A stretch of 62,744 bases of DNA from a virus (Duplodnaviria > Caudoviricetes): positions 1-62,744 of the IMG/VR virus record IMGVR_UViG_3300030390_001226. One strand, 5' to 3'. The position numbers and the translations under genes were made by a program. Numbering within the stretch: position 1 is the first letter of the stretch; the number at the start of each line of letters is the position of its first letter. Under the pieces are notes generated by a model, which ran no database searches, was not told where the DNA came from, and saw only the letters and a list, made by a program, of their open reading frames with translations. Below, one piece after another: positions 29,117 through 57,431 of the stretch.

Positions 29117-32100
29117 ATGAACGAAGAATATTTAAAAGGACTTCACGATTATTTAAAAATAAACGCTGATTACGATACTTGGGTTTCTGACATTGTTGGT
29201 AATGAAAGTTACCTTAACGAGTTACATGGTCACTTAGGTATTAAGGCTGACTATGAAACATGGAAGTCTGATGTTTTTACTGGAACTCAACAAGAGGAAG
29301 TAAAAAAAAAAGACCTTTCAACGGATGCTACTTTACCTACAGAGGGTGGAGAATCGGTTTCTGGAGGGAGTGATCTTCTTGACACGTCTATTCAAGACAG
29401 AGAGGCTCAAGGTCACCAAACAGACATATCTTTATTTACTGATGGCTCCGACAAGGATGCTGTAGCTGCTGCTGCAGAGCAAGAGAGAACAGTATTTTAT
29501 GAGGAGCAAGGTTTAGACTTCAAGAAGATTAACGAACTCAAGAAGAGAAGAGAAGAGTTAGAAGAGGAGAAGAAAGCTTATCAAGAAGACGTACTAAATA
29601 CTAAGTTTGAATTAAATGGAGGTATTAAAAGGGATGATAAATTTTTTGTACCTAAAGACAAAGGCTTCTTTGAATCTCAAAAAACTATCGAAGAGGGTGG
29701 GTATGATGAGGTAACTAAAGATAAAGCTTTAGAGTTTGCTACTGGTGCTACAGCCGTTAATGTGGCTATGACTATTGGAGATTATGTACTTCCTGGTGGT
29801 GGTAGTGAAGGTGGTAGAAGTGAGAGATCTATACTTGACGATATAGGTAGTGTAGAAGAAGAACTAAACGAATCAAGACCACAAGTTATTAAAGCTGAAG
29901 AGGCTTACAATACACAAATCACAAACTCATTTTTAGAACAAGGTTACAGAGGTGATAGGCTAACCCAGTTAATGGAGAACGCTGACATCAAGCAGGAGTA
30001 TGTTGAGTCTAAATTAATTACAATAAACGGACAGGAGAGTACTGGTGTGACTGTAGAGGAGGGAATCTACGATGACGAGTTTATTAGTGGGTTACAAGAT
30101 GGCTCAATCAAGGTTGAGATACACCCATCTATAAAAGATACTGATTACGGTAGATACTTAGAGAACGCTATAGCAGTACAGTCTAACGCTGGAGGAGCGT
30201 TTGGTGACATAAAAGATGCTCTTATGTCTGGTGGCTATGGGACTGTCGCTGGTACTCTTGAGGTTCTTGAGATAGGAGAAGGTGTAGACTCAAGTCTTGA
30301 GTACTCAGATAAAGGTGGTGTTTTAGCTAGAGAACTTAAAGACGTTCAAGATCAGTACACTGATATGCAAAGAATGTATCAGTACCCTGGGTTTATGCAG
30401 TCTATGAGGGCTGGTGAATACGCAGATGCTGGTTTTCAATTAGGTAGAGGTATAGCAGGGTCTACAGTTCAAATAGCTATATCAGCTATAGGTACAAGGC
30501 TTGGGATACCTCAGCCATATTTAATGGGGTTTATAGCTGTTTCTGCTGCAGGTCAAAAATCATTAAGTCTTAAAGAGCAAAGAAGAGAGGGTAATTTAGA
30601 TATTTCTAACTTCTACTTAGCTGCAAACGCTTTATTTTCTGGGGCTGCTGAGGCTGTATGGGAAATACCTACATTTCAGATTATCAAGGGTATTCAAGGT
30701 ATAACTAAGGGAGCTGGTAAGGCTGCCGTTAGAGAGGTAACAGAGAGGGCTGTTGATGGTTTGCTTAAGGATTTACTTAAAGAAGGTGGATCTGAGGCTG
30801 GTACTACAGTTACAGAGATGATAGTGGATCACGTTACTGGAGCAGGAACCCCTGAAAGTTTTGACGAGATAGTAAACGAAGTTGGTAACGCATTTGTTAC
30901 TGGCGTAGGTATGGCTGGTGGTATGAGAGCTGTTGGTGGAAGTGCTGCTGTTACTGCCTCTGTTATAAATAAACTTACAGGTGTGGACTTAACCAATCGT
31001 ATAGTTGCCACAGTAAGAAATGTAAACGAGGATGGTTCTCTTGGTGATAAACAAGAGCTAACTCAAGCTGAGTATAGAAAGTGGAGAAAAGATCCTAAGA
31101 ACTTAAAGGCTCAATTAGAGGGTGGTGTAAACGTAGAGGTTTTTAATAAAGATATAGAAGGAGACTTACAGGATTTAGTTGACTCAGCATCTGAGGATGT
31201 TGTAGACGCTAACGAGAGTGTTGATGTAGTTGGTCGAGAGGTTAACTCAGAGATTAACGAGCTTGGTAATGATCTTAAAGATAAGGACTCTGCACCTTCT
31301 GAAGGTAGGGTATCTAAGATAGCTCAGTTATTAAATAAGATGGGTTCTCTTATAGATGGCTCTAGTTCTAATAGGGGTGTTGATTTAAAGGCTTTAAAGG
31401 CTAACTTTAATGCTATTATGAATAAGGCTGGTTTTTCTGTAAACGATAACGTTACAAATCAAAACACTGATAACGCAAACATAGAGAGTACAGAGAATAT
31501 TACAGAGATACAAAGCAAAGAACAAGCTAATGCAATAGAGAAAGCTTTAGATGAAGGTGGAGACTTATCTGTAGTACTATCTCAAGATGGTGTTGGTGTA
31601 TCTAAGAGTGGTGAGAGCGTTTCTAAGAACAATATAAAGCTTGGTAAGTTTAAGAGTAAGGCTGCAGCTAAAAAGGCGTTAGATGCGTTTAATAAGAAGA
31701 ATTCTAAAGCTGAACAAAAGCAAAAAAGACACGTTGAGGTTCAGAAGAAGAACAATAAAGAGTTCAAGGCTGCCGATAAGGGTAAGATGGATGACGTATC
31801 TCAAGAAGATCTTGATGGAGACTTTAATGTAATGTCTGCTGAACTTGATGGACTTGATGCTGCAACTAACGATAAGAGAACGGATAACCTAGAGAAGGTT
31901 CTTAAAAATAAAGGTTTAAAATACAAGAAGGTTACCACTATAGAGAATGGTGTTAGTAAGACTTCGTTTATGGTTGAGGGTGTTGAGTCTAACGAGGCAT
32001 TAAGTATAGCCTCAGGATTTGGTCAGAAATCTATAACGTCTAGTAAGGATGGGGTGCTTCATTCAGATGGTACAGTAGAGGCTTTAGATGGTAACACTTA

Positions 32101-35100
32101 CGATGGTCCAGACGCTAGAGACGGTGCTAGGGTTATTGTTATAAAACAAAACGGCAAGAAGAAAGCTATACGACTTGGTACTGGGAAAAAGTCTTTTGCT
32201 AAGAAGTTCAATAGTAACAACATAGCTGATATAGCTAAGTTTGTAGAGTACCTACCTGATAATCAAAAGAAAATTCTTGGTCACGTACTAAACTTCTTTT
32301 CTAAGATTCAAGGGTTAAATATTGGTATCGTTAAGAATACCTACGCAATGAAGCAACAACTAGAGGCTGATGGTTACAACCCAGCTCAGATAGATGCCTA
32401 CGCAAAAAATAGAGCTATATATAGAGGTAGTGATGGTACTATGTATCTGAACCTTGAGGTGATGAATATGAACACTCCATTCCACGAGATCATACACCCA
32501 CTTGTTAACTTTATTAAAAAGACGGATTCTGAAACAAGAAATAAAGCTATTGAAGAAATAGAAAAATCTCAAGCTTACAAAGACGCTGATACTGAAGGTA
32601 AGAAGCAGATGATTGACGCTATACCTGAAGGAGTATACTCTAAGATAGAGGATATGGTTTCTAAGTCAGAGCCTGGAATGATTGGTTCTCCATTTAGAAA
32701 ACGATGGATAGACTCTAACGGTAGAAGACAGAGTGGTAGTTACCTTGACTGGGTTAAAGGTCAAGAGGCTTACGAGGACTTATCTAGACAAGATCAGGTA
32801 GAGGAGGCGTTTGCTGAGATGATGGGTGACGCTGCTGCTAATCAGTTTCAAAAAGATAACTCTAAGCTTAAGCAGATATACGATGCGATAAGAGAGATGT
32901 TATCTGTATTTAATATAAACATACCTGCGGATAAGAACTTAGCTTCATTAGATCTATCTGATTTACAGAATATAGGGGACCTAAGAAGTGGTATTGGTTC
33001 TGCCTTAGCTAAGGGTACTTCCTTGAATGTTGGTGGGGTTGACTTCTCTGTTAGTAAACCTAAGAACTCAGAGGTTGTAGATAAATCGATTAAAGCACAA
33101 GTTAATAGCCAAGAGCAGGGTCACGACCTTGGTGTGACTGAGGTTACAAGTTTTGAAGGAGTTGAAACTCAAGATATTAAAGCTCAACCAAGTGACTACA
33201 ATCCAAACTTTGATGATAGCAAAGTTAAGAGAGGTAGTATTAGTGAGTTTAATGGTCAGAAGGCTATGCTTATGTGTATAGACAGGTCTGTATCTGGAAC
33301 TGTAAATTCTCCATCTGGAGTGGTTAAAGAGTTTAATGGTGGTATGTACTTCTCTTACCAAGAGGGTAATGGGGTATGGGCATTCGCAGGAAAAGCTTCT
33401 GCATCTAAGGTTATTAATCAAGCTAAAAATAGTAACGGATTAATATTTCTTACCCTTATGGCTCCACAATCTATAGATGGAACTGTAGAGATGTTTGACT
33501 ATGTTATGGATGAGATTGATAACGCAGTTAAAAAAGGATTAGTTAAGAAGGATGTAGCTTTAGATTTTTTAAATAAAAAATTAAAACTAGGTAAGGTTCA
33601 AGATAAGTTAAGCAAAGAAGGTATATCTAAGGATAATGTTAAGTCAATTTCAGAGTTTAGAAAACTTATATTATCCCTTGAAGGAGCTTTCGATGTTAGA
33701 AAGGATTTAACTTCTAAAATGATTAAGGGTAAAGATCTGTCTAAGTGGGGTATACCTACAAGGGAAGAGATGTACTCTTTTGTTAACCAAGGAGAGATAA
33801 AAGACTTGACTGGTAACCCTGTTGTAGCTGCTATAAGAATTGATACTGAGACTGGATATATAGACTCAAGAGATAATGATAACGTAAAAGATCACCCTAC
33901 TTACCCATATCAAATTAAGGGAGAACCTTTAATGGTGTTTGATCAGGCTGTTGATGCTAGTGAGCTTTGGGGAGACCTAAACCTTGCAGATAAGTATTTA
34001 ATTGATCCTAAGACAGGTATACCTTTCAGTGAGGGTACAACTACAGCTAGAAGAAATGCTGCTGTAATGATGGCAACACCTGTTGTAGATATTAAAGCTC
34101 AAGCCCCTCAAGTTGAAGAGGTGCAGTGGCAAGAATCTAAGATAGGTAGAGGTGACTTAGCTATCACTAATAGAAGTGAAGAGGTTAGAGAGGCTGCACA
34201 GGATTATTTTGATAGAAAGATAACTCAACAGGAACATTTAGATATTGTTCAAGAGAACAGTCCTATCAAGCCTATAACACAGTTTATGAATCCTGCGAGC
34301 CTAGAGGATATTGAAACTGCTATAGGATCAAAGGTTGAAGGTAAGCTAGACGTTTCTATACCAGAGGGAACTAAGGTTGGTGTACGACTAGACATTTCTG
34401 CTTACACAAATAAGAATATATGGGCTATTACTGTACACGAAGATGGTAGAGGTAAGGCTATGTCTTACACAAACGTTGCGAGAATAAACAATGTTGAGTT
34501 TATATCTAGCCCTAAAGTTGCATTAAACATTGCTAGAGGAAAGTCATCAAAAGCTACCATTGCTAGAATGCTAGGTGAGTGGAGTCCTATTGAGGGAGCT
34601 GATGCTAAAGCTAGAGGTGAGAGTGCTAAACAAATTATAGTTGAGGTAATGAATGACCCTTCGTGGTCACAGATTGGTATGAACCCATTTAGACACTCAT
34701 ACTTCTACGATAGGTTAGATGGTATGCCAGTTGTTAATGCAGAGCAGGTTGTTCAGATTGGTGGGTTAGTTTACGCTAAGAATGCTGAGAAGACTACTCC
34801 TTTTGATGAAAGGTTTGAAGATAAGAGAACTGGTTTAAAATTCCAAGCCCCTGATAACGATGGGTTTACAGGTGGTAGAAGCCAGTACGCAAGATTTAAC
34901 GTTACACCTAATACAGACAGACCTAACGCATTGATTGAGGACTTATCTGAGGATAGAGTATCTGAGATAGCGATGAAGGGTAACTGGTCTATAATAACAG
35001 GTACGGTTGAGGCTGAAGGTAAATACAATAACGAAGCTAACGTATCTAATAATGCTAAACTGTACAAAGAATTAGTCGAGGAGTTTGGTGCTGAAAACAT

Positions 35101-38100
35101 AGAGGTAGTTCAGGGTGTCTATATGAAAAAGGATCAAGGACCTAGTTTATTTGTTACTGGTATAACAGAGCATAGAGCTATGCAGATAGGGAAAAGCTAC
35201 TCTCAGGAGGGTGTCTTAACTAGAAGGGGTAATATATTTACTGATGGTTCTGGTATGAACCCTGCATCTGAGACTGTATTTGTTGGAGATAACGCTTTAA
35301 ATAAAGATGGTAACTCAACCACAACAAGTGGTGTTACATTCTCTCTAGACGTAAACTGGAAGAGTAAAGTACCTTTAGCTACAGGCATTAAAGCTCCAAC
35401 TGATAAGGTTGGTCCACTTAGGTTTCAAGCCCCTCAAGAGGAGTCTTTAAGTGATTTTCAAAAAATATTTGCTTTAGATTTAAACTTGCTAACTGAAGAT
35501 TTAAAAGAGTTAGATGATAATTTTATTATTGACTATAACGCTACTAATTTTGGATTAAACCCTAGAAATCGTAGAGTCGTATTATTTGATATAGAACAAG
35601 TTAATTTAAGTGCTTCAAAAGCATTTTCTGAGATTAAAGATAGTTACCCTGAATTAAACAAGGAGAAACCATTGATTGATGATCCTTATTCAAGCGAAAA
35701 TTATAGCTTAATTTCTAAGGGAGTAGGAAGCCAAGGGGATGTATTTTTAGATAATAGAGATAATTCAATTCTTAAATTAACTAAAAGTCCTTACGAGGTT
35801 ATTGGCTCATTAAAAGTGATGTCAGCTCAAAAATCTAAAGCTAAATTTAAAATTAATTTTCCTGAGATTTATTCAATACAAAAAATTAACTCTGAAAATA
35901 ATTTTTATGCAATAAAAAGAGAAAATGTAGAACCATTTAATGAGGAGAAATTAAGTGAGGTAAAGGATGTTTTTAGTGTAATTAAAAATTATTACCCTAA
36001 TTATGGTGAAGGAATAGAGTTTGGAGAACTTCTAGCTAAAGAAGATGTTTACCTTCCTATAATGGAGAGTATTAGATTTCAGGCTGGTAACGGTGTTACT
36101 GAAGATCAGTTAACAGTACTAAAGTCTACATACTCAGATATAGAGAAGAAATACCCTAACATAAATGTAGATGAGGGTATGATTAAATTATATCACTACT
36201 CTGATGAGAGGCTTAATACTGTAGACCCTAGGATAGCATCACGTCAAACTTACTCTAATCAAGAGTATAGAACGTGGGGTAGATCAAGAGTCTTCTTCTA
36301 CACAGATGCTGACATGAAAGAGGGAGTAGTTGGTGGATCTGTAATGAATGAAACCTTACTGCCTATAGACAGGGTATACCCTCTAACTGAGGACCCTTTA
36401 AACCTTGAAGAGGTTGTAAAGAATAACTTAGACGCTAAAAGAAATAGTGGAGATAAAACTCAAAGTACTATAACTCTTAACACTAAGTCAATGGATAGTA
36501 GTGTATTGGCTATATCTAAACTTAAGTCTTTACTTAAGGATATGGGACTATCTGATGTTGTAGACTTTGGGGATGTTACAGAGAACTTTACGTATAATAA
36601 AGATGATAGTGGTAAGTACCAGAGAGCTGGAATTAAAGACTTAAGCTTTACAGTTAATTACCCTATAGATTCTGACAACATAACATCTGTTATAAAAGAT
36701 ACATTCGACAAGGCTTCATTTGAGAAAGTGGACCCAGCTACACTACCATTCAACTACTTTGAAGAGATGGCTAACGTCGCAGAAGGACTTGGTTTTCAAG
36801 GGTTTATATACGACCACGTAGGTGGTAAGACAGTATCTTCATGGAAACCAGTTAGTGTTGTTGGTGATAGATTTCAAGCTGCTTCACAGGAAGATACAGA
36901 CGTATACGTGTCTGGTCTTGGTGCTATAATGTGGGATCTAGCTAAACCAATTATTGATGCTGACTATGAGCTTGGAGGTTGGATGAGTAATATAGGCGAT
37001 TCAGACAAGAGATATATGAAAAAAGACTCTGAAGGTTTAATGGTTTCAACTGTTCGTGCTACAGAGTTATTTGGTAGACCTAAAGGCTTACATACCAATC
37101 AAGAAATAAAAGAAATGATTATAGCTGGTAGAGCTCAACTTAACCACCAGTTATATGTAGCTAATAAAAATCAAAAGAACCTTAAGAAGGTTGTTGAGGC
37201 AGAGGAGAAGAGAATAAAGTCTGAGGATTCGTATAAAAATGCTACCCCAGAACAGCAAGAAGCTATGCTAGAGCACTTGACTCCTGAAGCGTTAAACAAT
37301 ACAATGAGTAGTATTGACGCAATACAATTACTTCCTGAACAGTCTAAGCTTAGAGAAGCTATGACTACGGTTAGAAATCATATAGATGTCTTAAGTATGA
37401 CTATGTATGAGGAGGGATTAGTTAGTGGACCAATGCGGTACACAATTGAGGGGAACCTTGGTTATTACCTGACTAGATCTTATAATCACTTTGAAGACTC
37501 TAATTGGAAACAAAAAGATCAAGAGGTTATAAGAAGAGCTGAGGTGTTTGTAATGAATCAGCTTATGGCAGAGTCTAAGAATATGAGTCTAGAAGAGGCT
37601 CAGGTTGTTGCTCAACAAATGGTAAATCAAATTGTAAATAAAAAAGATGATTCTCCTGGCATGAAATTCATTCATAACTCAGGTGTTTCGGGGTCTTTAA
37701 AGATACAGAATTCTATATTTGAAAGAAGAAAGGTAGTCCCAGAGGAAATAAGAGAGCTTCTTGGAGAAAGAACGGATCCACTAACCAACTATGTCAACAC
37801 AATATCTAAGTTATCTAGAACCCTTATATCTAATCAGATGTATGAAGACATGATAGATTTTGGTATGGGTAAGTTTATAGCGGATCCTAACCCTAATAAA
37901 CCTACAGTTTCTAGCATACCAGGTATAGAAAATAAGTTAGAAGGTAAAAAGTGGGGTCCTCTAGATGGTAAGTTCGTGGATAACGAAATGCTTGACGTAT
38001 TAAGCTATTATAACGATTCAGACGGAGAGATGGGTCTTGCTACCAAGGCTTGGATGACGTTTGTGTATGCGACTAAGAAATCTGCTACAGTTTATAACCC

Positions 38101-39694
38101 AGCAACACACGCAGTAAACCTATTTGGTAACTCTTACTTCTCTTTAATGAATGGGCACACAAGTCCAGCTAAATTCTTCGAGTCATTTAGGGTTGCTGCA
38201 GGTCAGATAACTAACTTAAATGGGAAAGAAAGACAAGCGTTTTACGAGGAGTTAATCTCACTAGGTGTTGTTGATTCTTCAGCGTCACTCGCAGAGGTTG
38301 TACAGATAGGTGAAGACTTAATTAAAGGAGTTGACATGAATAAAATCATGGATAAGCTTGGGGATAGAATGGCTGGTAAATCTGCTAAATTCCTTCTTGC
38401 TGCAGCAGGTAAAGCTGACAAGGTAGCCACTAAATCCTACCAAGCTGAGGATGATTTGTTTAAGATCTTTGGATATATGTCTGAGAAAGCTAAGTACATG
38501 GAGGCTGGTCTTAGTGAGAAAGAATCTAAAGCTATAGCTGTTAGAAATACTGCTAATATATACCCTAACTACAGTAGAATACCTGCTATTGTTAGGTATA
38601 TTGGTAGAAATAACTTTGTAGGTACATTCGTATCATTTACTTCAGAGTCTATAAGATGCACTAAGAATGCCTTAAAACTATCCCTTGATGAGATAGGGGA
38701 TCCAAACCCTAAGATTAAGAAAATGGGAGCTAAAAGATTAGCCTCTTCATTGCTTACTCTTAAGTTTGCTGAAAGTTTAGCATCAACGGGTATATCAATG
38801 TTTTTCGGTGCGTTTGGAGATGACGAAGAGGAGTTTCATAAAGAGCTATTTGGTCTAAGACACTTACTTGCCCCATGGGATAAAGATGGTAAGATAGCCC
38901 CAATAGATAAAGGCTTCTTTGAAAGAGGTATGGATGGATTTACAGAGGAGAATAGTGGTCACGCCTTTGTTGAGTACATGAATACATCTAGACTTTCAGG
39001 TGGTGGGTTCGTAAAGGATTTATTGAGAATAGCATTTACTGACATGAATAGCCCAGATTATAAGGGTACTATGGGTAGAATACTGTATAAGTTTTACAGT
39101 GCCTTCCTTAGTGAGGATATGGCTCTTGGAGTTGTAAAGGATATTATAGAAAATAAGGGTAATAAGTATTATAACCCAACCGATCATTTTCTTGAAATTA
39201 GCTGGGACGTACTTAATAACGGATTATTTGCTAAACTTGGACCAGGAGTGTTTAAATCTATTAGTAGAATAGAGGAGTCAATGCAGGAGGATAGTGATAA
39301 AATAACTTCTAACGAAATTAGAGCTATGATTGGTTTAAGAACAACTACATTAGACGTGAACAAATCTTTATTCTTTAAGTCTAGAGAGATAATTAAAGAT
39401 ATGAGAGATCGTTCTGAGTCTTTAGAGTTTGATCTTAGACAGAAAGACATGACCCTTGCGCATACCCTTAACCCTAGTCACGAGATGTTTGATAAGAAAA
39501 TGTCTAAATACTTTAATGGTCTTGTTAGTGCTGTGCAAACAGCCAGAAGACTTGGTGTTAATATAAGTGGTACTAAAGATAACTGTATCGACATGCTTAA
39601 GAAGGCTAACGTGCCTCAAGAGGTTATAGATAGAGTTATACGTGCTGCATTAAACGGAGAGGGAAGTGAGACGCTTCGTATAGGAGATAAATAA
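29117..39694 (+). CDS. Large polyvalent protein: metallopeptidase, DUF3293-like repeats, kinase-like and ART-like modules, helical C-terminal region
   Basis: HEIIH...EEAFA zincin motif, repeated [KR][AF]Q linkers, module motifs described in findings. Confidence 0.8.
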   Translation: MNEEYLKGLHDYLKINADYDTWVSDIVGNESYLNELHGHLGIKADYETWKSDVFTGTQQEEVKKKDLSTDATLPTEGGESVSGGSDLLDTSIQDREAQGHQTDISLFTDGSDKDAVAAAAEQERTVFYEEQGLDFKKINELKKRREELEEEKKAYQEDVLNTKFELNGGIKRDDKFFVPKDKGFFESQKTIEEGGYDEVTKDKALEFATGATAVNVAMTIGDYVLPGGGSEGGRSERSILDDIGSVEEELNESRPQVIKAEEAYNTQITNSFLEQGYRGDRLTQLMENADIKQEYVESKLITINGQESTGVTVEEGIYDDEFISGLQDGSIKVEIHPSIKDTDYGRYLENAIAVQSNAGGAFGDIKDALMSGGYGTVAGTLEVLEIGEGVDSSLEYSDKGGVLARELKDVQDQYTDMQRMYQYPGFMQSMRAGEYADAGFQLGRGIAGSTVQIAISAIGTRLGIPQPYLMGFIAVSAAGQKSLSLKEQRREGNLDISNFYLAANALFSGAAEAVWEIPTFQIIKGIQGITKGAGKAAVREVTERAVDGLLKDLLKEGGSEAGTTVTEMIVDHVTGAGTPESFDEIVNEVGNAFVTGVGMAGGMRAVGGSAAVTASVINKLTGVDLTNRIVATVRNVNEDGSLGDKQELTQAEYRKWRKDPKNLKAQLEGGVNVEVFNKDIEGDLQDLVDSASEDVVDANESVDVVGREVNSEINELGNDLKDKDSAPSEGRVSKIAQLLNKMGSLIDGSSSNRGVDLKALKANFNAIMNKAGFSVNDNVTNQNTDNANIESTENITEIQSKEQANAIEKALDEGGDLSVVLSQDGVGVSKSGESVSKNNIKLGKFKSKAAAKKALDAFNKKNSKAEQKQKRHVEVQKKNNKEFKAADKGKMDDVSQEDLDGDFNVMSAELDGLDAATNDKRTDNLEKVLKNKGLKYKKVTTIENGVSKTSFMVEGVESNEALSIASGFGQKSITSSKDGVLHSDGTVEALDGNTYDGPDARDGARVIVIKQNGKKKAIRLGTGKKSFAKKFNSNNIADIAKFVEYLPDNQKKILGHVLNFFSKIQGLNIGIVKNTYAMKQQLEADGYNPAQIDAYAKNRAIYRGSDGTMYLNLEVMNMNTPFHEIIHPLVNFIKKTDSETRNKAIEEIEKSQAYKDADTEGKKQMIDAIPEGVYSKIEDMVSKSEPGMIGSPFRKRWIDSNGRRQSGSYLDWVKGQEAYEDLSRQDQVEEAFAEMMGDAAANQFQKDNSKLKQIYDAIREMLSVFNINIPADKNLASLDLSDLQNIGDLRSGIGSALAKGTSLNVGGVDFSVSKPKNSEVVDKSIKAQVNSQEQGHDLGVTEVTSFEGVETQDIKAQPSDYNPNFDDSKVKRGSISEFNGQKAMLMCIDRSVSGTVNSPSGVVKEFNGGMYFSYQEGNGVWAFAGKASASKVINQAKNSNGLIFLTLMAPQSIDGTVEMFDYVMDEIDNAVKKGLVKKDVALDFLNKKLKLGKVQDKLSKEGISKDNVKSISEFRKLILSLEGAFDVRKDLTSKMIKGKDLSKWGIPTREEMYSFVNQGEIKDLTGNPVVAAIRIDTETGYIDSRDNDNVKDHPTYPYQIKGEPLMVFDQAVDASELWGDLNLADKYLIDPKTGIPFSEGTTTARRNAAVMMATPVVDIKAQAPQVEEVQWQESKIGRGDLAITNRSEEVREAAQDYFDRKITQQEHLDIVQENSPIKPITQFMNPASLEDIETAIGSKVEGKLDVSIPEGTKVGVRLDISAYTNKNIWAITVHEDGRGKAMSYTNVARINNVEFISSPKVALNIARGKSSKATIARMLGEWSPIEGADAKARGESAKQIIVEVMNDPSWSQIGMNPFRHSYFYDRLDGMPVVNAEQVVQIGGLVYAKNAEKTTPFDERFEDKRTGLKFQAPDNDGFTGGRSQYARFNVTPNTDRPNALIEDLSEDRVSEIAMKGNWSIITGTVEAEGKYNNEANVSNNAKLYKELVEEFGAENIEVVQGVYMKKDQGPSLFVTGITEHRAMQIGKSYSQEGVLTRRGNIFTDGSGMNPASETVFVGDNALNKDGNSTTTSGVTFSLDVNWKSKVPLATGIKAPTDKVGPLRFQAPQEESLSDFQKIFALDLNLLTEDLKELDDNFIIDYNATNFGLNPRNRRVVLFDIEQVNLSASKAFSEIKDSYPELNKEKPLIDDPYSSENYSLISKGVGSQGDVFLDNRDNSILKLTKSPYEVIGSLKVMSAQKSKAKFKINFPEIYSIQKINSENNFYAIKRENVEPFNEEKLSEVKDVFSVIKNYYPNYGEGIEFGELLAKEDVYLPIMESIRFQAGNGVTEDQLTVLKSTYSDIEKKYPNINVDEGMIKLYHYSDERLNTVDPRIASRQTYSNQEYRTWGRSRVFFYTDADMKEGVVGGSVMNETLLPIDRVYPLTEDPLNLEEVVKNNLDAKRNSGDKTQSTITLNTKSMDSSVLAISKLKSLLKDMGLSDVVDFGDVTENFTYNKDDSGKYQRAGIKDLSFTVNYPIDSDNITSVIKDTFDKASFEKVDPATLPFNYFEEMANVAEGLGFQGFIYDHVGGKTVSSWKPVSVVGDRFQAASQEDTDVYVSGLGAIMWDLAKPIIDADYELGGWMSNIGDSDKRYMKKDSEGLMVSTVRATELFGRPKGLHTNQEIKEMIIAGRAQLNHQLYVANKNQKNLKKVVEAEEKRIKSEDSYKNATPEQQEAMLEHLTPEALNNTMSSIDAIQLLPEQSKLREAMTTVRNHIDVLSMTMYEEGLVSGPMRYTIEGNLGYYLTRSYNHFEDSNWKQKDQEVIRRAEVFVMNQLMAESKNMSLEEAQVVAQQMVNQIVNKKDDSPGMKFIHNSGVSGSLKIQNSIFERRKVVPEEIRELLGERTDPLTNYVNTISKLSRTLISNQMYEDMIDFGMGKFIADPNPNKPTVSSIPGIENKLEGKKWGPLDGKFVDNEMLDVLSYYNDSDGEMGLATKAWMTFVYATKKSATVYNPATHAVNLFGNSYFSLMNGHTSPAKFFESFRVAAGQITNLNGKERQAFYEELISLGVVDSSASLAEVVQIGEDLIKGVDMNKIMDKLGDRMAGKSAKFLLAAAGKADKVATKSYQAEDDLFKIFGYMSEKAKYMEAGLSEKESKAIAVRNTANIYPNYSRIPAIVRYIGRNNFVGTFVSFTSESIRCTKNALKLSLDEIGDPNPKIKKMGAKRLASSLLTLKFAESLASTGISMFFGAFGDDEEEFHKELFGLRHLLAPWDKDGKIAPIDKGFFERGMDGFTEENSGHAFVEYMNTSRLSGGGFVKDLLRIAFTDMNSPDYKGTMGRILYKFYSAFLSEDMALGVVKDIIENKGNKYYNPTDHFLEISWDVLNNGLFAKLGPGVFKSISRIEESMQEDSDKITSNEIRAMIGLRTTTLDVNKSLFFKSREIIKDMRDRSESLEFDLRQKDMTLAHTLNPSHEMFDKKMSKYFNGLVSAVQTARRLGVNISGTKDNCIDMLKKANVPQEVIDRVIRAALNGEGSETLRIGDK

Positions 39695-39737
39695 ATAAAA
39701 ACCCTAGTATTATAAAATTAATACGTATATTTATATC

Positions 39738-39804
39738 GCTTTGAAATTCATAGTTTTAAGCGTTTTGGTTGATTTGTGGGAGGGGTGGTTCCCTCCCTTT
39801 TTTT
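39738..39804 (+). ncRNA. Candidate antisense small RNA
   Basis: TATATTTA -7-like element at 39726-39733, core TCATAGTTTTAAGCGTTTTGGTT complementary to - strand leaders, own terminator. Confidence 0.45.
39778..39804 (+). terminator. Intrinsic terminator
   Basis: GGGAGGG/CCCTCCC stem followed by T7. Confidence 0.85.
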
Positions 39805-39813
39805 ATATAAAAT

Positions 39814-39945
39814 ATGGAGATAGGAATACAATTAATTCAGGGAATATTGTTTGGTCTTAGAACTTTTGAGGCAAACGAAGATATACCATACAACGAAGTC
39901 CAGCTATTTGCTGGACCTATATGCGTATATATTATATGGAATTAA
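39814..39945 (+). CDS. Small hypothetical protein, 43 aa (not in ORF track)
   Basis: MEIGIQLIQGILFGLRTF...YIIWN read from sequence. Confidence 0.55.
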   Translation: MEIGIQLIQGILFGLRTFEANEDIPYNEVQLFAGPICVYIIWN

Positions 39946-40178
39946 GAATCTATTCCATAAGGACATATAAAATTAAAATAATTTTCGTCTAAATCTTTTA
40001 TCTCAAGGGCTAATTCTTGCCACTTACTTTCACCTGCTTCTCTAGTCTTAAGATCCAATGGAGTTCCTGTCCCCATGTTAGACCATATAATAGAGTTTTC
40101 ATTTAATAGCTTATCTACTTTTGACTTAACAGACTTGTTAGTGTAGTAGGGACTTGTACCATCTTTTCTTTGCTTCAT
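39942..40178 (-). CDS. Hypothetical protein
   Basis: 78-aa ORF at end of - strand operon. Confidence 0.6.
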   Translation of the reverse strand: MKQRKDGTSPYYTNKSVKSKVDKLLNENSIIWSNMGTGTPLDLKTREAGESKWQELALEIKDLDENYFNFICPYGIDS

Positions 40179-40182
40179 AGCT

Positions 40183-40839
40183 TTAGTATCCAGTTAATAA
40201 TTTAAGTACGTCATCAATAGCCTTATGTCTGTGGTTATCTTCTAGAATTACCTTGTATACATGTTTGCTATCTTTTATCTTATGTACATCATCTATAGCT
40301 GAGTTAAGTGGTGAACCTAAGTCTATCTGTTGGTTATCCCCACAGAATATCATTACAGAGCTTTTACCTAACCTACCTAAAGCCATTCTTAATTGTGGCT
40401 TAGTTAAGTTTTGAAACTCATCTATAATAACTACAGCGTTATCAAATGTCCTACCTCTAAAATGAGCAAGAGAAACTAACTCAACCTCCTCATTTTCTAC
40501 CATCTTCTGAATCTTATCAGGCTTATTATAAACCTTACGCATATTCGACATGATTGGTACAAGCCAAGGCTCTAACTTTTCCTTCTCGTCTCCAGGAAGA
40601 AATCCATTATCCTCTGTAGCTATAGTAGGTCTTGTAATGATAATCTTATTGTATTGTCTCTTAAAGAACATGTCCAAAGCTATCTGAACAGCTAGAAGCG
40701 TTTTACCAGATCCAGCCTTACCGACAATAAAGTTGAAGGCGTGATTTAGTATTTGCTCCTTAGCTATCTTTTGTTCTTCAGATAGGGTTATGTTAAACTT
40801 AACATTCCCTTTAGGTGGTTGCTTTTTCTTGTTATCCAT
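40183..40839 (-). CDS. phoH: PhoH-family ATPase
   Basis: GKAGSGKT, GFLPGD, FRGRTF, IIDEFQN, GDNQQID, NHRH; start set at MDNKK. Confidence 0.93.
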   Translation of the reverse strand: MDNKKKQPPKGNVKFNITLSEEQKIAKEQILNHAFNFIVGKAGSGKTLLAVQIALDMFFKRQYNKIIITRPTIATEDNGFLPGDEKEKLEPWLVPIMSNMRKVYNKPDKIQKMVENEEVELVSLAHFRGRTFDNAVVIIDEFQNLTKPQLRMALGRLGKSSVMIFCGDNQQIDLGSPLNSAIDDVHKIKDSKHVYKVILEDNHRHKAIDDVLKLLTGY

Positions 40840-40840
40840 A

Positions 40841-40999
40841 CTACGAACCACAAGCTTCACAATCCTCGTCATCTATGTTGCAAGCCTCAGGCTGATCTTT
40901 TTCTTCTAGATCTACTATCCAAGAATCTAAAGTATCTTGTCTTGATTCGTCTGCTCTTCTTGCTGAGTCTTTAATGAAATCGTCATCGAATTTGTTCAT
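40841..40999 (-). CDS. 52-aa acidic peptide ending in RNR-like CxxC tail (not in ORF track)
   Basis: MNKFDDDF...PEACNIDDEDCEACGS*, tightly coupled to both neighbours. Confidence 0.75.
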   Translation of the reverse strand: MNKFDDDFIKDSARRADESRQDTLDSWIVDLEEKDQPEACNIDDEDCEACGS

Positions 41000-41466
41000 G
41001 TTTTTTGTTTTTTAAAGGTTCCCCTGCTTAGTATGGATTCTATTGTTGCGTTAACTTCTTTTTGATTCGATGGGATGTATACGTCTAATTTTTGATCACT
41101 ATCATGTAGATACTTCAAAAACAATTTGAATCTCATACTAAACACTGGGGTTCTTAAACCTTTGGTTTCTATTATGAATCCAGCATCTAAGTTTATAAAG
41201 TCAGGTGTATAAGATATGTTCCTTACGTTACCAGTCATTTCCTTAAATACCTTTTTTCCTTTAGTAGTTCCCTTATCCATAAGGAGACCCTCGAACTTGA
41301 ATTTTTCTACAAGCTCGAAGGTCTTGCCCTCATACTCATGGGGGATTTCAGCTTTATTTAAGGCTCTATAGCAATACAACTCTAAGCCTGAGGCGAATGT
41401 AATTCCATCCTCAGTATGTTTCTTAGCGTTAGTTATCTGCTTACCTTTTCTTCTTTTGTATCGCAT
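40996..41466 (-). CDS. Endonuclease I-like / Holliday junction resolvase (PD-(D/E)xK)
   Basis: FASGLE...YE...YTPDF...IIETKG. Confidence 0.8.
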   Translation of the reverse strand: MRYKRRKGKQITNAKKHTEDGITFASGLELYCYRALNKAEIPHEYEGKTFELVEKFKFEGLLMDKGTTKGKKVFKEMTGNVRNISYTPDFINLDAGFIIETKGLRTPVFSMRFKLFLKYLHDSDQKLDVYIPSNQKEVNATIESILSRGTFKKQKT

Positions 41467-44946: not shown

Positions 44947-46281
44947 TTAGAATGCTTGTGATGTTTCTACTCCTTGAACTGCTGAATAGTCGTTACCATA
45001 ATCTGCAGGGTCACTAAACCTAGTGTACTCCTTCTCAAATTTAAGGGGTAACACTCCAGTACCTATATTTCTACCTTTGGCAAAGATTAGGTCTACTAAA
45101 CCCTCTGTATTGTTTCCGTTATCATCCTGCATAATACCATAGTATTCTGGTCTATACACAAGCATAACAATATCTGATGCCTGCTCTATCTCTCCACTCT
45201 CTCTAAGATCAGATAGCATAGGTCTATTACCTCCACCCCTCTTCTCTACACTTCTACTAAGCTGAGATAATGCTACGATTGTTATGTTTAATTCCTTAGC
45301 TATATTCTTAAGTTCACGAGCAACCATAGCTACCTCCTGCTCTCTTGAGTGACCACTACCCTTTACTAATTGAAGGTAATCAACTAAGACAAACTTAACA
45401 CTCTTAGTTATAACGTACTGACGTATCTTATTCAGCAGGTATCTAAGTGAGGAATCCTTACACTCATCAACGTATAGTTCAGTTCTTTCTAGCTTACCTA
45501 TAGCAGTATCTACCCTAGCCAACTCATCGTTCTGTAGCGTACCCTTCATTATGTATCTGTTATTAACAGAACTTTCTAATGATACTAACCTCTGTAATAG
45601 TTGTGTCTCCCCCATCTCGTAAGAGAATACTGCTGATGGTATACCTGCCTTAGAGCAGTTGTAACAAAAGGCTAAACCTAAAGATGTCTTACCCATAGAG
45701 GATGCACCACCTATTACTATAAAGTCAGTCTCTTGCCAACCTCCAGTAAATTTATCTATTGATTGAAACCCAGTAGGCACACCAACCATTTCATCTGAGG
45801 ACATTCTTCTTTGTATGTCATCGTGTAGTACCTTTAGTTGTTTCTTTATGTCGGGAATATCGCTACCCCTAACCTCTGATATAGGCTTAAGTTCTGTCTC
45901 TACATAGTCTAGTACCTCAAACAAGTCATCATTCCTATTCAGCTTATTATTAGTTACCTCTATTAACTTTTTTAATCTGATCTTCTTCTCTTCTTGAGAT
46001 AAGAAAAGAATCATATGTTCTGTGTTGTAATGGCTAAAATCTAAAGAGTAACACTCAGCTAACCTATAAGGTGCTAGAGAGTCTTTAACTAGCTTAGTAA
46101 GTATAATTAAGTCTACCTTTTCCCCTAAGTCTAACCTATTTGATACTACCTTGTAAATCTTTCTATTAAGAGGGTCAGTAAACATTCCCTCAGACATAAG
46201 GCTGTGATTATTATAATACTCTTTTGGTATAGACATTATACGACCAAGCAACCTCATTTCCATGTCTTTATTATCTGTCAT
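44947..46281 (-). CDS. dnaB: Replicative DNA helicase
   Basis: GVPTGF, GASSMGKT, FSYEM, LVDYLQL, LSQLSR, DLRESGEIEQ, KGRN. Confidence 0.95.
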   Translation of the reverse strand: MTDNKDMEMRLLGRIMSIPKEYYNNHSLMSEGMFTDPLNRKIYKVVSNRLDLGEKVDLIILTKLVKDSLAPYRLAECYSLDFSHYNTEHMILFLSQEEKKIRLKKLIEVTNNKLNRNDDLFEVLDYVETELKPISEVRGSDIPDIKKQLKVLHDDIQRRMSSDEMVGVPTGFQSIDKFTGGWQETDFIVIGGASSMGKTSLGLAFCYNCSKAGIPSAVFSYEMGETQLLQRLVSLESSVNNRYIMKGTLQNDELARVDTAIGKLERTELYVDECKDSSLRYLLNKIRQYVITKSVKFVLVDYLQLVKGSGHSREQEVAMVARELKNIAKELNITIVALSQLSRSVEKRGGGNRPMLSDLRESGEIEQASDIVMLVYRPEYYGIMQDDNGNNTEGLVDLIFAKGRNIGTGVLPLKFEKEYTRFSDPADYGNDYSAVQGVETSQAF

Positions 46282-46774
46282 CAGTAACGTATTTTGGTTG
46301 TGTGTATCGGTTTAACTCTTTCTTATCATCACTAGATAATAATACTTCACTCTCCCATCCCTTTGAGTTTATCCAAGTTCTAGGGTTCTTTCTGTACTTC
46401 TTATCTGGAGTAGACTCTATGTAAGACTTAACACCCTTAATAGCTTTACCCATCTCCTCCAATGTAAGCCTCATAAAGGATATTCTAGCGTTCTTCTCGT
46501 CTATCCTCTTGTCGTACATAGACCAGAACATATCGAATCCCTTAGACCTTCTCTGATCTTCTTCCTTAGGACTTGTTTCGTTTAAGAACCTAGCGTCTGT
46601 TACCTTAAGATAGTGATTTATATTATTGAATGTAGTTTGTGACTCAAACTCATTATTGTATAGAGACTTATACACTTTTTCTTTAGAGTGGAATACTATA
46701 TACCTACCATCCATCTCTATAAAGTCAACGTTATCCGTATTGATTATGTCGTTATCTGATACTCTTAATCTCAT
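46271..46774 (-). CDS. Phage replication initiator/helicase-loader-like protein
   Basis: FDMFWSMY...KNPRTWIN..GWE motif, upstream of dnaB. Confidence 0.6.
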   Translation of the reverse strand: MRLRVSDNDIINTDNVDFIEMDGRYIVFHSKEKVYKSLYNNEFESQTTFNNINHYLKVTDARFLNETSPKEEDQRRSKGFDMFWSMYDKRIDEKNARISFMRLTLEEMGKAIKGVKSYIESTPDKKYRKNPRTWINSKGWESEVLLSSDDKKELNRYTQPKYVTDDR

Positions 46775-46793
46775 AGCTTTGGTTTGGTTTGGT

Positions 46794-46824
46794 AAAAAAA
46801 ATAGGGGAGGTGGTTTGCCTCCCC
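46794..46824 (-). terminator. Intrinsic terminator inside the replication operon
   Basis: GGGGAGG/CCTCCCC stem with A8 on + strand (U tract on -). Confidence 0.7.
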
Positions 46825-48078: not shown

Positions 48079-48647
48079 TAAGCTAGTGTGTTAGCAACTT
48101 TTATAAATTTCCCTAGATTTTCTTCTTGAGATTTAGTAAGAGAATAACCACTCATTTTCTGCTGAACAACTGCACCTTTACCATCTTCTATAGCCTTAAC
48201 CATAGCTTTGTATTGGTCTGATGATAGCTTAGGTTTAGCACCTGCAACCTTCTTAACTATGGGTGCGTTACCTTTAACTGCTCCATTACCATCGTCATCT
48301 CCAGTAACTACACCAACAAATGATGCTAAAGCGTATCTTCTGGCGTAGGATATAGCTGAACCAACACCATGAGCATCTTCCTTAGATGGAATATACATGG
48401 TAGAGGATAGGTACTCGCCACTTGAATGTGATAGTATTGTTGTTAGCCCACCGACATCTGTAGGCATTTGAATAATTGATAGCTCATTTTCGGACAATAA
48501 TGCACGAACAGAATCCCATACTGAACCTAAGTCAGCATAGTTTGATTTGAAAAAAGGATTCTTTGAGTTTTCTTTAGCAGGTCGTAATTGAGCCTGTACT
48601 TTTGATAGGGCAAGGGTTAGATTCCCAATGCTTTCTGACTTTTCCAT
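48078..48647 (-). CDS. ERF-family ssDNA annealing protein
   Basis: NPFFKSNYADL, HSSGE, GSAISYARRYAL, DDDG. Confidence 0.92.
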   Translation of the reverse strand: MEKSESIGNLTLALSKVQAQLRPAKENSKNPFFKSNYADLGSVWDSVRALLSENELSIIQMPTDVGGLTTILSHSSGEYLSSTMYIPSKEDAHGVGSAISYARRYALASFVGVVTGDDDGNGAVKGNAPIVKKVAGAKPKLSSDQYKAMVKAIEDGKGAVVQQKMSGYSLTKSQEENLGKFIKVANTLA

Positions 48648-48679
48648 AGTTTTGGTTTGATTAAATTAACTTTCTGTTG

Positions 48680-49542: not shown

Positions 49543-49728
49543 CTAGTTGGTTATTTCGTCTATTGCTTTAATTAAATTGATTCTTAAGAGTTTCCACGCT
49601 CCATCGCAATCAAAGTCTAGACCCTCGTTTTCTCTTGCTAGGTTTATTAGCATATGAATTTCTTTTGTTATCTCCATAACTTCTAATGATAGTGTAGCTG
49701 AGTATGATTCTAATTGATCTAATGTCAT
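49543..49728 (-). CDS. Hypothetical early protein
   Basis: Start set at MTLDQ by conserved leader. Confidence 0.55.
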   Translation of the reverse strand: MTLDQLESYSATLSLEVMEITKEIHMLINLARENEGLDFDCDGAWKLLRINLIKAIDEITN

Positions 49729-49892
49729 AGTCTTAGTTGTTTTGGTTTTTAGGTTTAACGTCTTTAGTCTTAAGGATAGTGAATTGATGTTCCTCATCCT
49801 CTAATCTTCTGTCGTGTTTAATCTTAGGTAGTAAATCCTCGTTAAAGGTGTTTAGGTAGTCCTCACCCATCTGGATGAATAATTCTTTTAAG

Positions 49893-50114
49893 TTATTCAT
49901 AGTACTGCTCATTTTGGTTAATAATGGTTTGCTCTAACTCATCTATAGCATCTGTGCTTAGGTAGTCATATATAAAGTCTGTAATGTCCACTGCGTTCAT
50001 AGATGTCTTGCAGTGGTACATTAAGGATTCTAATTCGAAGTGTTCTCTTGATACGTGAGCGTGTGCTACTACCTCGTAGGTCTCACTCTCTTTGATTGTC
50101 TGTGTGATATTCAT
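49893..50114 (-). CDS. Hypothetical early protein
   Basis: 73 aa; AAACCAAAACACTATG leader. Confidence 0.6.
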   Translation of the reverse strand: MNITQTIKESETYEVVAHAHVSREHFELESLMYHCKTSMNAVDITDFIYDYLSTDAIDELEQTIINQNEQYYE

Positions 50115-50313: not shown

Positions 50314-50337
50314 AGTGTTTTGGTTTGGTTTAGACTA

Positions 50338-50369
50338 CAAACATAGTAAACTTATTTTACTTTACCAAA
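50338..50369 (-). promoter_or_regulatory. Bacteroidota-type promoter
   Basis: TTTG-N20-TATGTTTG on - strand. Confidence 0.75.
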
Positions 50370-50494
50370 TAAATTTACATCTATATAAAAATAACACTTG
50401 ATTATGTCATTTATTTCGTGTAACTTCGTAAAATATAATATTAAGTATAACAAATACCCTTACCTCCCTTTAAAAAATCTTAAAAGAATCAGTC

Positions 50495-50609
50495 CAAGTG
50501 AGGTTCAGTTAAGCCAATGGAGCATTATAAGGGCTTGGCGCAACGTAAGCGAGCTTCTTGTTACCCAACCAATCACTTGTACCCTTTTATGTATTAAGCC
50601 CATATTATG
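50495..50609 (-). ncRNA. Candidate pseudoknotted RNA
   Basis: Interleaved inverted repeats 50495-501/50573-79 and 50523-36/50596-609. Confidence 0.35.
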
Positions 50610-50622
50610 TTCTGTAAGTTCA

Positions 50623-50826
50623 TTAATAAAACAAGGACATACAAGTCTTGTAAGCCTCAGGGTTCTTATCTACCCTCTTAAACGTACTCGCAATAGGATT
50701 CAAGGTATTGCTATCCTTGTATTCTTTTAATGCTTTAGTAATAGCACCACGCTTAGTCTTAGCGTATACGGTGTTCCATCCTCCACCCTCGAAGTTGAAC
50801 ATAAATTCTTTTAATGGTAATTCCAT
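50623..50826 (-). CDS. Hypothetical early protein
   Basis: 67 aa with conserved leader. Confidence 0.6.
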   Translation of the reverse strand: MELPLKEFMFNFEGGGWNTVYAKTKRGAITKALKEYKDSNTLNPIASTFKRVDKNPEAYKTCMSLFY

Positions 50827-53408: not shown

Positions 53409-53567
53409 TTAGTTTTCCTCTTCTAGGTGTAGTGCTATAAGGACTATGATAGGTAAGTCCATTAAGGTTATTAGAGCCTTAATCTCTATGCTGTCTGATG
53501 TAGTGTATACTATAGCCGTTAATGTTACGGCTAGTATAGTGATAATCGTTAAGATAAATTTATTCAT
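53409..53567 (-). CDS. 52-aa two-TM membrane protein
   Basis: Start set at MNKFILTII by conserved leader; two hydrophobic helices. Confidence 0.6.
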   Translation of the reverse strand: MNKFILTIITILAVTLTAIVYTTSDSIEIKALITLMDLPIIVLIALHLEEEN

Positions 53568-53592
53568 AGTTTCTAGTTGTTTAGTTTGACTA

Positions 53593-53754
53593 TTATTCTT
53601 CCTCCCAAAACTCAGCATCTCCATACACTCCAATGCTTTGCATATTACCTAGCATTGTTTCTGTCATAGCTTGTGTTTTTTCATTGGTCATCTCTTCCAC
53701 AGATAATGCTAATGCAGTTGCGATAATCTCTAGTTGTTTCTTGTTGAATCTCAT
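53593..53754 (-). CDS. 53-aa first early protein (not in ORF track)
   Basis: MRFNKKQLEI...FWEEE; directly downstream of the ribozyme. Confidence 0.6.
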   Translation of the reverse strand: MRFNKKQLEIIATALALSVEEMTNEKTQAMTETMLGNMQSIGVYGDAEFWEEE

Positions 53755-53780
53755 AATCTTAGTTGTTTAGGTTAATGTAT

Positions 53781-56323: not shown

Positions 56324-56709
56324 TCAGTACCGAATACCATAAACTCAACTACAGAAGTTGCGTTAGTACCGTAAGCTTTAAGTCCCATATCTGCGTTAGT
56401 AGGTAAGAATGCAAAGTCCCCACCAGCTAATTTTAATATCTCAGGGTTACCAGTTGTTGTTGCGTCATACACGTAGATGAAGTTTGTTGCTGTAGCATCA
56501 GTATTCTTGATGTATACATAAGCAATAGCTGCGTAGTCATCTGCTGTATATATAACAGCTGCACTAGCGTGAACTGCTGTTTGACCTACCTTAGTACGAG
56601 CGACACCTGTTGTGTGTGAAGCTGTTATAGCTTTATTAATTGCTAGGCTTAATGTCTGTGACGTTAAATCAGAGCTAGTAATTGTTAGTTTTGTTGTTAC
56701 TGTTGCCAT
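56317..56709 (-). CDS. Virion structural protein (putative)
   Basis: Thr/Ala-rich beta protein, YVYIKNTD. Confidence 0.55.
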   Translation of the reverse strand: MATVTTKLTITSSDLTSQTLSLAINKAITASHTTGVARTKVGQTAVHASAAVIYTADDYAAIAYVYIKNTDATATNFIYVYDATTTGNPEILKLAGGDFAFLPTNADMGLKAYGTNATSVVEFMVFGTDQ

Positions 56710-57427: not shown

Positions 57428-57431
57428 ATTG

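Follow-up and report, generated by a model that had tools for sequence, protein, structure and literature searches.

Gene layout and anatomy of the unit

We analyzed a short intergenic unit at positions 39726 to 39804, a candidate small-RNA gene, in a 62,744-nucleotide stretch of virus DNA (Duplodnaviria; Caudoviricetes; IMG/VR record IMGVR_UViG_3300030390_001226, positions 1 to 62,744). This whole stretch, referred to as the window, represents a complete phage genome of 62.7 kb that has direct terminal repeats and a G+C content of about 36%. Its plus strand carries a structural block (1 to 39694) with a portal gene (9237 to 11627) and two giant virion genes. The minus strand, from about 54000 down to 39942, carries many small open reading frames (ORFs) together with genes for an Erf-like recombinase, an exonuclease, a replication initiator, DnaB, and PhoH. 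The two blocks converge, and the candidate unit is located inside the convergent gap between them (39695 to 39941). The nearest cultured phages, with portal identities of 30 to 37%, have Maribacter, Flavobacterium, and Cellulophaga as hosts. TAnnTTTG is the consensus of the -7 promoter element in Bacteroidota. Such boxes were found at a sensible distance 5' of several genes in the window, for example at 48687-48680 and 50345-50338 on the minus strand, in agreement with the flavobacterial hosts of the nearest cultured phages.

The unit and the ORF that follows it consist of the following parts.

39726-39733, plus strand: -7-like promoter box TATATTTA, matching 7 of the 8 positions of TAnnTTTG
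39739-39804, plus strand: predicted small RNA of about 66 nucleotides (nt), its 5' end inferred from the position of the box and its 3' end from the T run
39740-39760, plus strand: 5' hairpin of nine pairs, three of them G.U, with CAU (39749-39751) in the loop
39748-39770, plus strand: 23-nt stretch TCATAGTTTTAAGCGTTTTGGTT, complementary to a start cassette of the minus strand
39763-39770, plus strand: conserved single-stranded core TTTTGGTT, unpaired in the predicted fold
39778-39804, plus strand: intrinsic terminator GGGAGGGG-TGGT-TCCCTCCC with an 8-bp G+C stem and a run of seven T
39814-39945, plus strand: conserved ORF of 43 amino acids (aa), MEIGIQLIQG...PYNEVQLFAGP...IIWN, with two hydrophobic stretches

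A preliminary description of the window had placed a small RNA between a -7-like element and a strong terminator. Both flanking elements were found where it had put them, and a script that delimited the unit independently, by the first letter of the box and the last T of the run, arrived at exactly 39726 to 39804. No -33 element was evident at the box, and TANNTTTG alone was not enriched in the window (84 matches versus 74.7 expected). The terminator is one of only two strong terminator-like sites between 38000 and 56000. It also terminates the late operon, which therefore shares its 3' end with the unit.

The predicted RNA folded into the 5' hairpin, 17 unpaired nucleotides, and the terminator (-17.7 kcal/mol, z-score of -2.0). 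Since three of its pairs are G.U, the 5' hairpin forms in plus-strand RNA only, and it was absent from the fold of the minus strand. Three features are compatible with the plus strand alone: the box, the T run, and G.U pairs, both in the 5' hairpin and as the inner pair of the terminator. Read on the minus strand, the same stretch gives AACCAAAACGCTTAAAACT-ATG, with the ATG at 39751-39749; as the preliminary description had stated, this ATG opens only six codons (MNFKAI) before a stop.

The 43-aa ORF, which the preliminary description had not mentioned, begins 9 nt past the terminator, and the space between the T run and its ATG is too short for a separate promoter. At its other end, the ORF overlaps the stop of the last minus-strand gene by 4 nt.

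An A+T palindrome (GTATTA-TAAAAT-TAATAC, 39707-39724) lies immediately 5' of the -7-like box, with comparable palindromes in several relatives. Its role could be that of a promoter operator or of a weak terminator of the minus strand, where it is followed by TAGGGTTTTTATTTAT.

Conservation of the unit among relatives

Relatives were gathered by an exact search for the hairpin and by a search with the 43-aa ORF. The latter recovered 29 viral-contig loci and 29 metagenome-contig loci, with ORF identities of 56 to 100% and 12 protein clusters, all from this phage group. Six aligned ORF sequences had 25 invariant columns; the ORF had no Pfam or PHROG match and belonged to no named family. Three hits of the hairpin search, in which the 19-mer stood in unrelated contexts (L006, L008, and L013), were excluded, as were two loci with an incomplete ORF and no upstream sequence (L046 and L082). 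In all, 57 loci yielded 35 distinct upstream sequences. A search of cultured-phage DNA with positions 38700 to 41000 returned nothing, and the 43-aa ORF likewise had no match among cultured phages; the module is confined to uncultivated marine relatives.

The preliminary description had suggested that conservation be looked for, and the anatomy of a small-RNA gene was kept across the 35 distinct relatives. The order of parts was common to them: the box, a 5' hairpin, usually a TTCATAG or TTCATGA stretch, the core, the G+C hairpin with its T run, and the ORF, which began 9 to 22 nt past the T run. One TAnnTTT[GA] box was present in 34 of the 35, at a distance of 52 to 89 nt 5' of the hairpin and at a homologous position in the alignments. 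The core read TTTGGTT in 33 sequences and TTCGGT in the remaining two. CAT was found in 24, and the hairpin with its T run was found in every variant. The letters between these parts varied freely, and the end of the upstream gene was of two different types, with the intergenic unit retained behind both. Since the box, the hairpin, and the core were retained while their neighbors changed, purifying selection appears to act on the plus-strand unit.

Base-paired positions changed in a compensatory manner. Three of the eight pairs in the alignment fold of the terminator showed compensatory changes, and the innermost pair was G.U in 19 of 21 sequences, which makes it specific to the plus strand. 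Short-form relatives retained a hairpin at the 5' site with different arms. Long-form relatives contained an additional 5' hairpin with the loop (G/A)TTCT, and all five of its pairs were altered on both sides among six sequences. Paired cells made up 27 of 30 (90%), a count that leans towards structure because the arms were picked by eye around the conserved loop; the three unpaired cells all came from one sequence (L026), which was one base out of register. The covariation score was reached by none of 500 shuffles. These comparisons indicate that selection acts on the RNA structure of the unit and argue that a chance relic does not account for the stretch from 39726 to 39804.

A covariance model of the unit (R1) found exactly one copy in each of five genomes (G000 to G004), with scores of 72 to 88 bits. 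Its additional matches, which scored at most 28.6 bits, were the antisense of target leaders and were rejected as paralogues. The minus-strand mini-ORF was not conserved: it ranged from 0 to 19 codons, the peptides were unrelated, and 11 of the 35 variants had no ATG.

A mosaic joint was seen at the stop of the giant gene (39640-39700), where six relatives (L012, L004, L005, L014, L015, and L017) differed in the C-terminal coding end. Despite this joint, their intergenic unit and 43-aa ORF were the same as those of the window, and the intergenic unit of L012 was identical. The lineage with TTCGGT (L033 and L074) contained no cassette genes in loci that extend only about 3 kb downstream.

A repeated start cassette on the minus strand

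Read on the minus strand, the candidate stretch is a further copy of a start cassette, AACCAAAAC...ACT-ATG, that recurs in the early region. The cassette has the consensus AAC(C/T)AAAC-AACTAGAAA(C/T)T-ATG and was found 5' of at least 11 minus-strand genes between 46270 and 53780, with ATGs at 53754, 53567, 51506, 50826, 50313, 50114, 49900, 49728, 48647, 46774, and 46281. The copies at 49919 and 49747 lie within the final part of the coding sequence upstream. The motif AACCAAA occurred 23 times in the window versus 13.3 expected, a number reached by none of 100 shuffles. All but 2 of the 23 copies were on the minus strand, and 15 of these 21 were located between 39764 and 54683. No cassette was present in the 13 plus-strand gene starts and the 5 further minus-strand starts (56709-60583) that were inspected.

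The cassette is of independent interest, since gene calls in the early region have to be corrected in its light. It implies a 55-aa ORF (ATG at 49900) and a 61-aa ORF (ATG at 49728) in place of an 84-aa ORF (49543..49797). Sometimes the cassette includes the stop or the last codons of the upstream gene, and its presence at homologous genes is conserved among relatives. Upstream of the ATG at 50114, three tandem copies of AAACCGAT (50151-50128, minus strand) lead into the cassette AAACCAAAAC, and a 6-bp hairpin, AAGGGT...ACCCTT (50171-50152, minus strand), stands 5' of the tandem copies. The only strong minus-strand terminator of the early block (46804-46824) divides the Erf and exonuclease genes from those for the replication initiator and DnaB. 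Both the loop of this terminator, CAAACCA, and the cassette after it resemble the candidate region read on the minus strand.

Complementarity of the predicted RNA to start regions

The 23-nt stretch matched the plus strand at 49725-49747 in 19 of 23 positions, as the preliminary description had reported; none of 200 first-order Markov simulations of the window contained a match this good. Four sites reached at least 17 of 23 (49725, 49897, 53564, and 53751), compared with a simulated mean of 0.28 and a largest simulated number of 2, and all four were on minus-strand ATGs. The partial matches named earlier for the starts at 46774, 48647, 50114, 50313, and 50826 were also confirmed, each with TTTGGTT no more than 25 nt after a CAT on the plus strand. 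The principal predicted targets are listed below.

49725-49747, minus strand: best predicted target, the cassette of the 61-aa gene (ATG at 49728); 19 of 23 positions, duplex of -23.0 kcal/mol from -20 to +12
49897-49919, minus strand: cassette of the ATG at 49900 (55-aa ORF within the end of the upstream gene); 17 of 23 positions, duplex of -25.5 kcal/mol
53564-53586, minus strand: cassette of the ATG at 53567; 17 of 23 positions, duplex of -20.9 kcal/mol
53751-53773, minus strand: cassette of the ATG at 53754; 17 of 23 positions, duplex of -24.4 kcal/mol
48645-48657, minus strand: start region of the Erf-like recombinase, AAACCAAAACT-ATG (PHROG Erf, 4e-38); duplex of -18.8 kcal/mol
46772-46789, minus strand: start region of the replication initiator (PHROG replication initiation, 4e-12), just 3' of the minus-strand terminator at 46824-46804
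46279-46299, minus strand: start region of the DnaB-like helicase (PHROG DnaB, 5e-76); 9-nt perfect site in the window, G004, and L009

The predicted duplexes extended from about -27 to +15 and covered the AUG. Energies of -17 kcal/mol or lower were obtained for 12 of the 71 minus-strand start windows, as opposed to 2 of 71 control windows of the same RNA and none of the 26 plus-strand gene starts. The five best duplexes of the window's own seed averaged -22.7 kcal/mol versus -16.5 ± 1.2 kcal/mol for 60 seeds shuffled at the mononucleotide level, a difference of about 5 standard deviations; random windows of the same RNA gave -16.6 kcal/mol. Four relatives showed the same pattern, with the following means of the five best duplexes.

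L009: own seed, -19.5 kcal/mol; shuffled seeds, -13.4 kcal/mol
G004: own seed, -19.6 kcal/mol; shuffled seeds, -15.4 kcal/mol
G003: own seed, -23.3 kcal/mol; shuffled seeds, -19.4 kcal/mol
G001: own seed, -23.0 kcal/mol; shuffled seeds, -19.6 kcal/mol

Perfect sites of at least 9 nt were often located directly 5' of ORF starts: 14 of 16 in the window, 7 of 8 in L009, 5 of 7 in L017, 6 of 10 in G004, 9 of 16 in G003, 11 of 24 in G001, and 6 of 12 in G002. In all nine phages where the gene was found, the Erf start region had at least 9 nt of perfect complementarity to the RNA of its own phage. At the replication-initiator leader, perfect complementarity to the phage's own RNA spanned 15 nt in L009, 16 nt in G001, 14 nt in G003, and 12 nt in G004, the maximum of the row in each case. 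Taken across phages, the covariation of seed and leader appears mixed and partial.

Proposed function of the unit

Our reading is that 39726-39804 is a single-copy, phage-encoded gene for a trans-acting small RNA, transcribed from the plus strand, that masks the Shine-Dalgarno (SD)-less starts of early and middle genes. Judged from the DNA and its relatives, we give this reading about an even chance of being correct. A host-type -7 box, of the kind used by Bacteroidota sigma-A, would initiate transcription near 39739. The RNA would form a small 5' hairpin that displays CAU in its loop, followed by the 17-nt unpaired stretch with the conserved core UUUUGGUU, and a strong intrinsic terminator would stop it near 39804, for a length of about 66 nt. 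The unpaired part would pair with the SD-less start regions (about -25 to +10) of minus-strand genes that share AACCAAAAC...ACU-AUG. Predicted targets include several small early genes and the genes for the Erf-like recombinase, the replication initiator, and DnaB. Pairing would exclude the 30S subunit, as it does for FopS and GibS in Bacteroides, and read-through of the terminator would additionally express the conserved 43-aa ORF. Because the same terminator ends the late operon, late mRNAs would have the seed in their 3' untranslated region (UTR), and masking would be coupled to late transcription. That the RNA is produced, that it is produced late, and that it represses translation is what we infer from these features.

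A broader interpretation, which we offer tentatively, is an RNA-based temporal switch in which the cassette marks a regulon of at least 10 early, recombination, and replication genes and one RNA carries its complement. It is possible, although we would not count on it, that this RNA arises both from its own promoter and from the 3' end of every late transcript, titrating initiation regions as late transcription rises. Equally speculative is the notion that seed and cassette drift together, as was seen at the replication-initiator leader in three lineages, and that read-through couples the switch to the 43-aa membrane-like peptide.

Several observations weigh against a trans-acting small RNA. 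The last letter of the box was G, which completes the consensus, in only 6 of the 35 relatives and A in 28, as in the window; since most boxes end in A and no -33 element was evident, the promoter is possibly weak. The anti-AUG part was missing in 11 of the 35 variants. The excess of the phage's own seed over shuffled seeds was weak in L017 (-18.6 versus -16.2 kcal/mol) and absent in the G002/L011 lineage (-16.7 versus -16.6 kcal/mol for G002), and all of these shuffles preserve mononucleotide but not dinucleotide content. The replication-initiator leader had only 7 nt of complementarity to the phage's own RNA in the window and in five other phages. A cross-phage energy matrix, tried as a test of coevolution, showed no diagonal dominance and was rejected as such a test; the Erf leader showed none across phages either. 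As the complementarity is that of an inverted cassette copy, concerted evolution of the repeat could mimic covariation. The proximity of a conserved ORF, 9 nt past the terminator, means that the unit could chiefly be its leader. The contigs from RNA libraries (X15, X16, X19, and X20) come from relatives of about 88 to 95% similarity and give no strand, start, or end. One contig each from X15 and X16, which are from the same sample, covers 39813 onward with 113 and 160 extra letters upstream and a different terminator variant; no such contig covers 37500-39503. These contigs count neither for nor against the RNA and decide among none of the readings. The proposal of the preliminary description is partly supported. 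Predicted pairing to start regions reached -17 kcal/mol or lower at 12 of the 71 minus-strand starts and at no plus-strand start; it was not uniform, given the loss of the anti-AUG part in some variants and the weak or missing excess in the lineages just named.

Alternative explanations

It is unlikely, in our estimate, that the unit is mainly a 5' leader or a transcription attenuator of the 43-aa ORF, in which the box would serve as the promoter of the ORF, the hairpin and U run would set read-through, and the likeness to the cassette would have no function in trans. This account draws on the lack of space for a separate promoter in every relative, on the conservation of the ORF in 29 + 29 loci, and on one RNA-library contig of a relative that spans both the terminator and the ORF. 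It leaves the invariant TTTGGTT and the CAU needless, however, and no pairing of either with the start region of the ORF was evident. Moreover, with a terminator of seven to nine U in between, most transcripts from the promoter would be lost before the ORF, to no purpose unless the short RNA had a use, and read-through from the late operon could equally feed the ORF. We place still less weight on the absence of any separate gene, that is, on 39695-39804 serving the late operon simply as its 3' UTR and terminator, with a decayed or inverted copy of a minus-strand gene start that was retained by hitchhiking or by gene conversion among the repeats. The minus strand of the stretch is indeed a good member of the cassette family, a similar module (hairpin, cassette, and ATG) stands at 46824-46772, the anti-AUG is gone in 11 of 35 variants, and the convergent junction of Cellulophaga phage phi18:3 is laid out alike but lacks the unit, having just a short inverted repeat. 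Yet no relative has an intact minus-strand gene here, the longest mini-ORF being 19 codons, and the box occupied its homologous place in 34 of 35 sequences, along with a covarying 5' hairpin and an invariant core amid changing neighbors. A relic leader of a deleted minus-strand gene, which the preliminary description had named as a possible refutation, was weakened by the same alignments: of the 35 variants, 33 kept TTTGGTT and 24 kept CAT, with the intervening sequence and the mini-ORF changing freely. A neutral 3' UTR with a plain terminator was not what we encountered, as the box, the 5' hairpin, and TTTGGTT were kept 5' of the hairpin with variable sequence interspersed.

The remaining alternatives concern the strand and the targets. 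Early and middle read-through transcripts might end in a 3' UTR that bears a final cassette, together with a mini-ORF or a site for protein binding, which would make the minus strand the functional one; or the plus-strand RNA might be a cis-antisense RNA directed at these read-through 3' ends, similar to OOP of lambda. We regard this as improbable. From 39942 to the hairpin there is no minus-strand terminator, and the hairpin itself lacks a U run when read on that strand; because the 43-aa ORF and the last minus-strand gene overlap by 4 nt, convergent transcripts must overlap. Contigs from RNA libraries of relatives, which are strandless, extend from a point 5' of the hairpin across the ORF to minus-strand genes, and none lies over the end of the giant gene. 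Nevertheless, the mini-ORF was unconserved and missing in 11 of 35 variants, the G.U pairs, promoter box, and U run are features of the plus strand, and a role in cis leaves the identity of the conserved core with the cassette core unexplained. There is also a small chance that the RNA is real and that its main targets are host mRNAs, the match to the phage cassette being secondary. Flavobacterial starts are A-rich and often AUG-AA, and an A is reportedly needed at -3, -6, and -12/-13 in Flavobacterium start regions (attributed to Baez et al., 2019). The complement of the seed (AAAACUAUGAA, AACCAAAAC) resembles such generic SD-less A-rich starts, and the core is still retained in G002 and L017, where additional pairing to phage starts is absent or weak. 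On the other hand, the plus-strand starts of the phage are also A-rich and paired poorly (0 of 26 at -17 kcal/mol or lower), which points to specificity for the cassette.

Comparison with known regulatory RNAs

To our knowledge, regulatory RNAs of phages come almost only from phages of Proteobacteria. Lambda OOP, P1/P7 c4, P4 CI, DicF, and IsrK are short phage or prophage RNAs with intrinsic terminators that regulate by base pairing, and c4 and CI mask the ribosome-binding region of their target through short repeated sites. The targets of those RNAs are a single operon or host genes, and their hosts use SD sequences and mostly contain Hfq, whereas one seed of the candidate would match a cassette before at least 10 genes in an SD-less system. 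A functional analogy can be drawn with RegA of T4, a repressor that shuts down many early mRNAs at a sequence shared by their initiation regions; the factor is a protein in that case and would be a base-pairing RNA here. Bacteroidota have neither SD-led initiation nor Hfq, and RNA control in these bacteria was recently opened to study by GibS and FopS.

The FopS RNAs of Bacteroides, as described in PMC11697453, are about 65 to 70 nt long and combine a canonical promoter with a single-stranded 5' seed and one Rho-independent terminator; there, TAnnTTTG is named the canonical sigma-ABfr promoter. The same source describes how the seed of FopS and GibS, by pairing beside start codons in several SD-less mRNAs, prevents initiation, and it reports conservation of FopS within Bacteroidaceae. 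The candidate is similar to FopS/GibS of B. thetaiotaomicron (RF04319) in predicted length, in the type of its putative promoter, and in the order of seed and terminator, and the alignment of the window with the RF04319 model has UUCAU.GU and GGUU.AU in common. Unlike FopS, the candidate is phage encoded, belongs to phages of marine Flavobacteriia-like hosts, is single copy, and has the phage's own genes as predicted targets. Membership in the family was rejected: the window scored 22.1 bits compared with a gathering score of 56, and none of 13 relatives matched at an E value of 10 or lower. On these scores and likenesses, we classify the candidate as an analogue of FopS and not as a member of RF04319.

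Small RNAs derived from 3' UTRs offer a further comparison, with FopS-14 (PMC11697453) and CisR (PMC13250501) as examples. Like them, the candidate has its seed just 5' of the terminator of a long operon, and processing of late mRNA could release the same RNA. Unlike them, it has a conserved promoter-like box in that 3' UTR, which suggests a primary transcript as well.

The literature search found no small RNA encoded by a Bacteroidota phage, and the 2025 review PMC12197685 contains neither "Bacteroid" nor "Flavobacter". If our reading is correct, this conserved small RNA, from a marine phage group that is abundant and has Flavobacteria-like hosts, would be, as far as that search showed, the first case of its kind. 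Should it pair with the cassette, it would also provide a simple, testable model of how SD-less starts are recognized and masked and of the posttranscriptional timing of phage gene classes. Phage small RNAs as a kind are already known; the chances seem to us roughly balanced that the novelty here is a conserved FopS-like phage gene for a small RNA, with a seed that mirrors the start cassette repeated at the phage's own early and replication genes.

The cultured Cellulophaga phage phi18:3 (L083/L084) shares the convergent layout, but the module is absent. Its junction contains a perfect inverted repeat, AAAAACCAACCC...GGGTTGGTTTTT, across the stop of the giant gene, which is likely a two-way terminator, and some of its start regions include TTAACCTAAA.

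Other features of the window

No tRNA genes were found in the window, and no Rfam family reached its gathering score anywhere in it. The early block contains a minus-strand gap of about 290 nt without ORFs (50331-50622), followed by the -7 box at 50345-50338, which matches the consensus perfectly. The fold of this gap was not significant (z-score of 0.19 for 50440-50625), and it had no Rfam match. The two giant virion-protein genes on the plus strand are located at 17145-26657 (3,170 aa) and 29117-39694 (3,525 aa). The latter has a match to DUF3293, and its last 751 residues have distant homologues among the virion structural proteins of Cellulophaga phages (Pachyviridae); one homologue of this C-terminal part, from a Pseudoalteromonas phage, is labeled as an ADP-ribosyltransferase.

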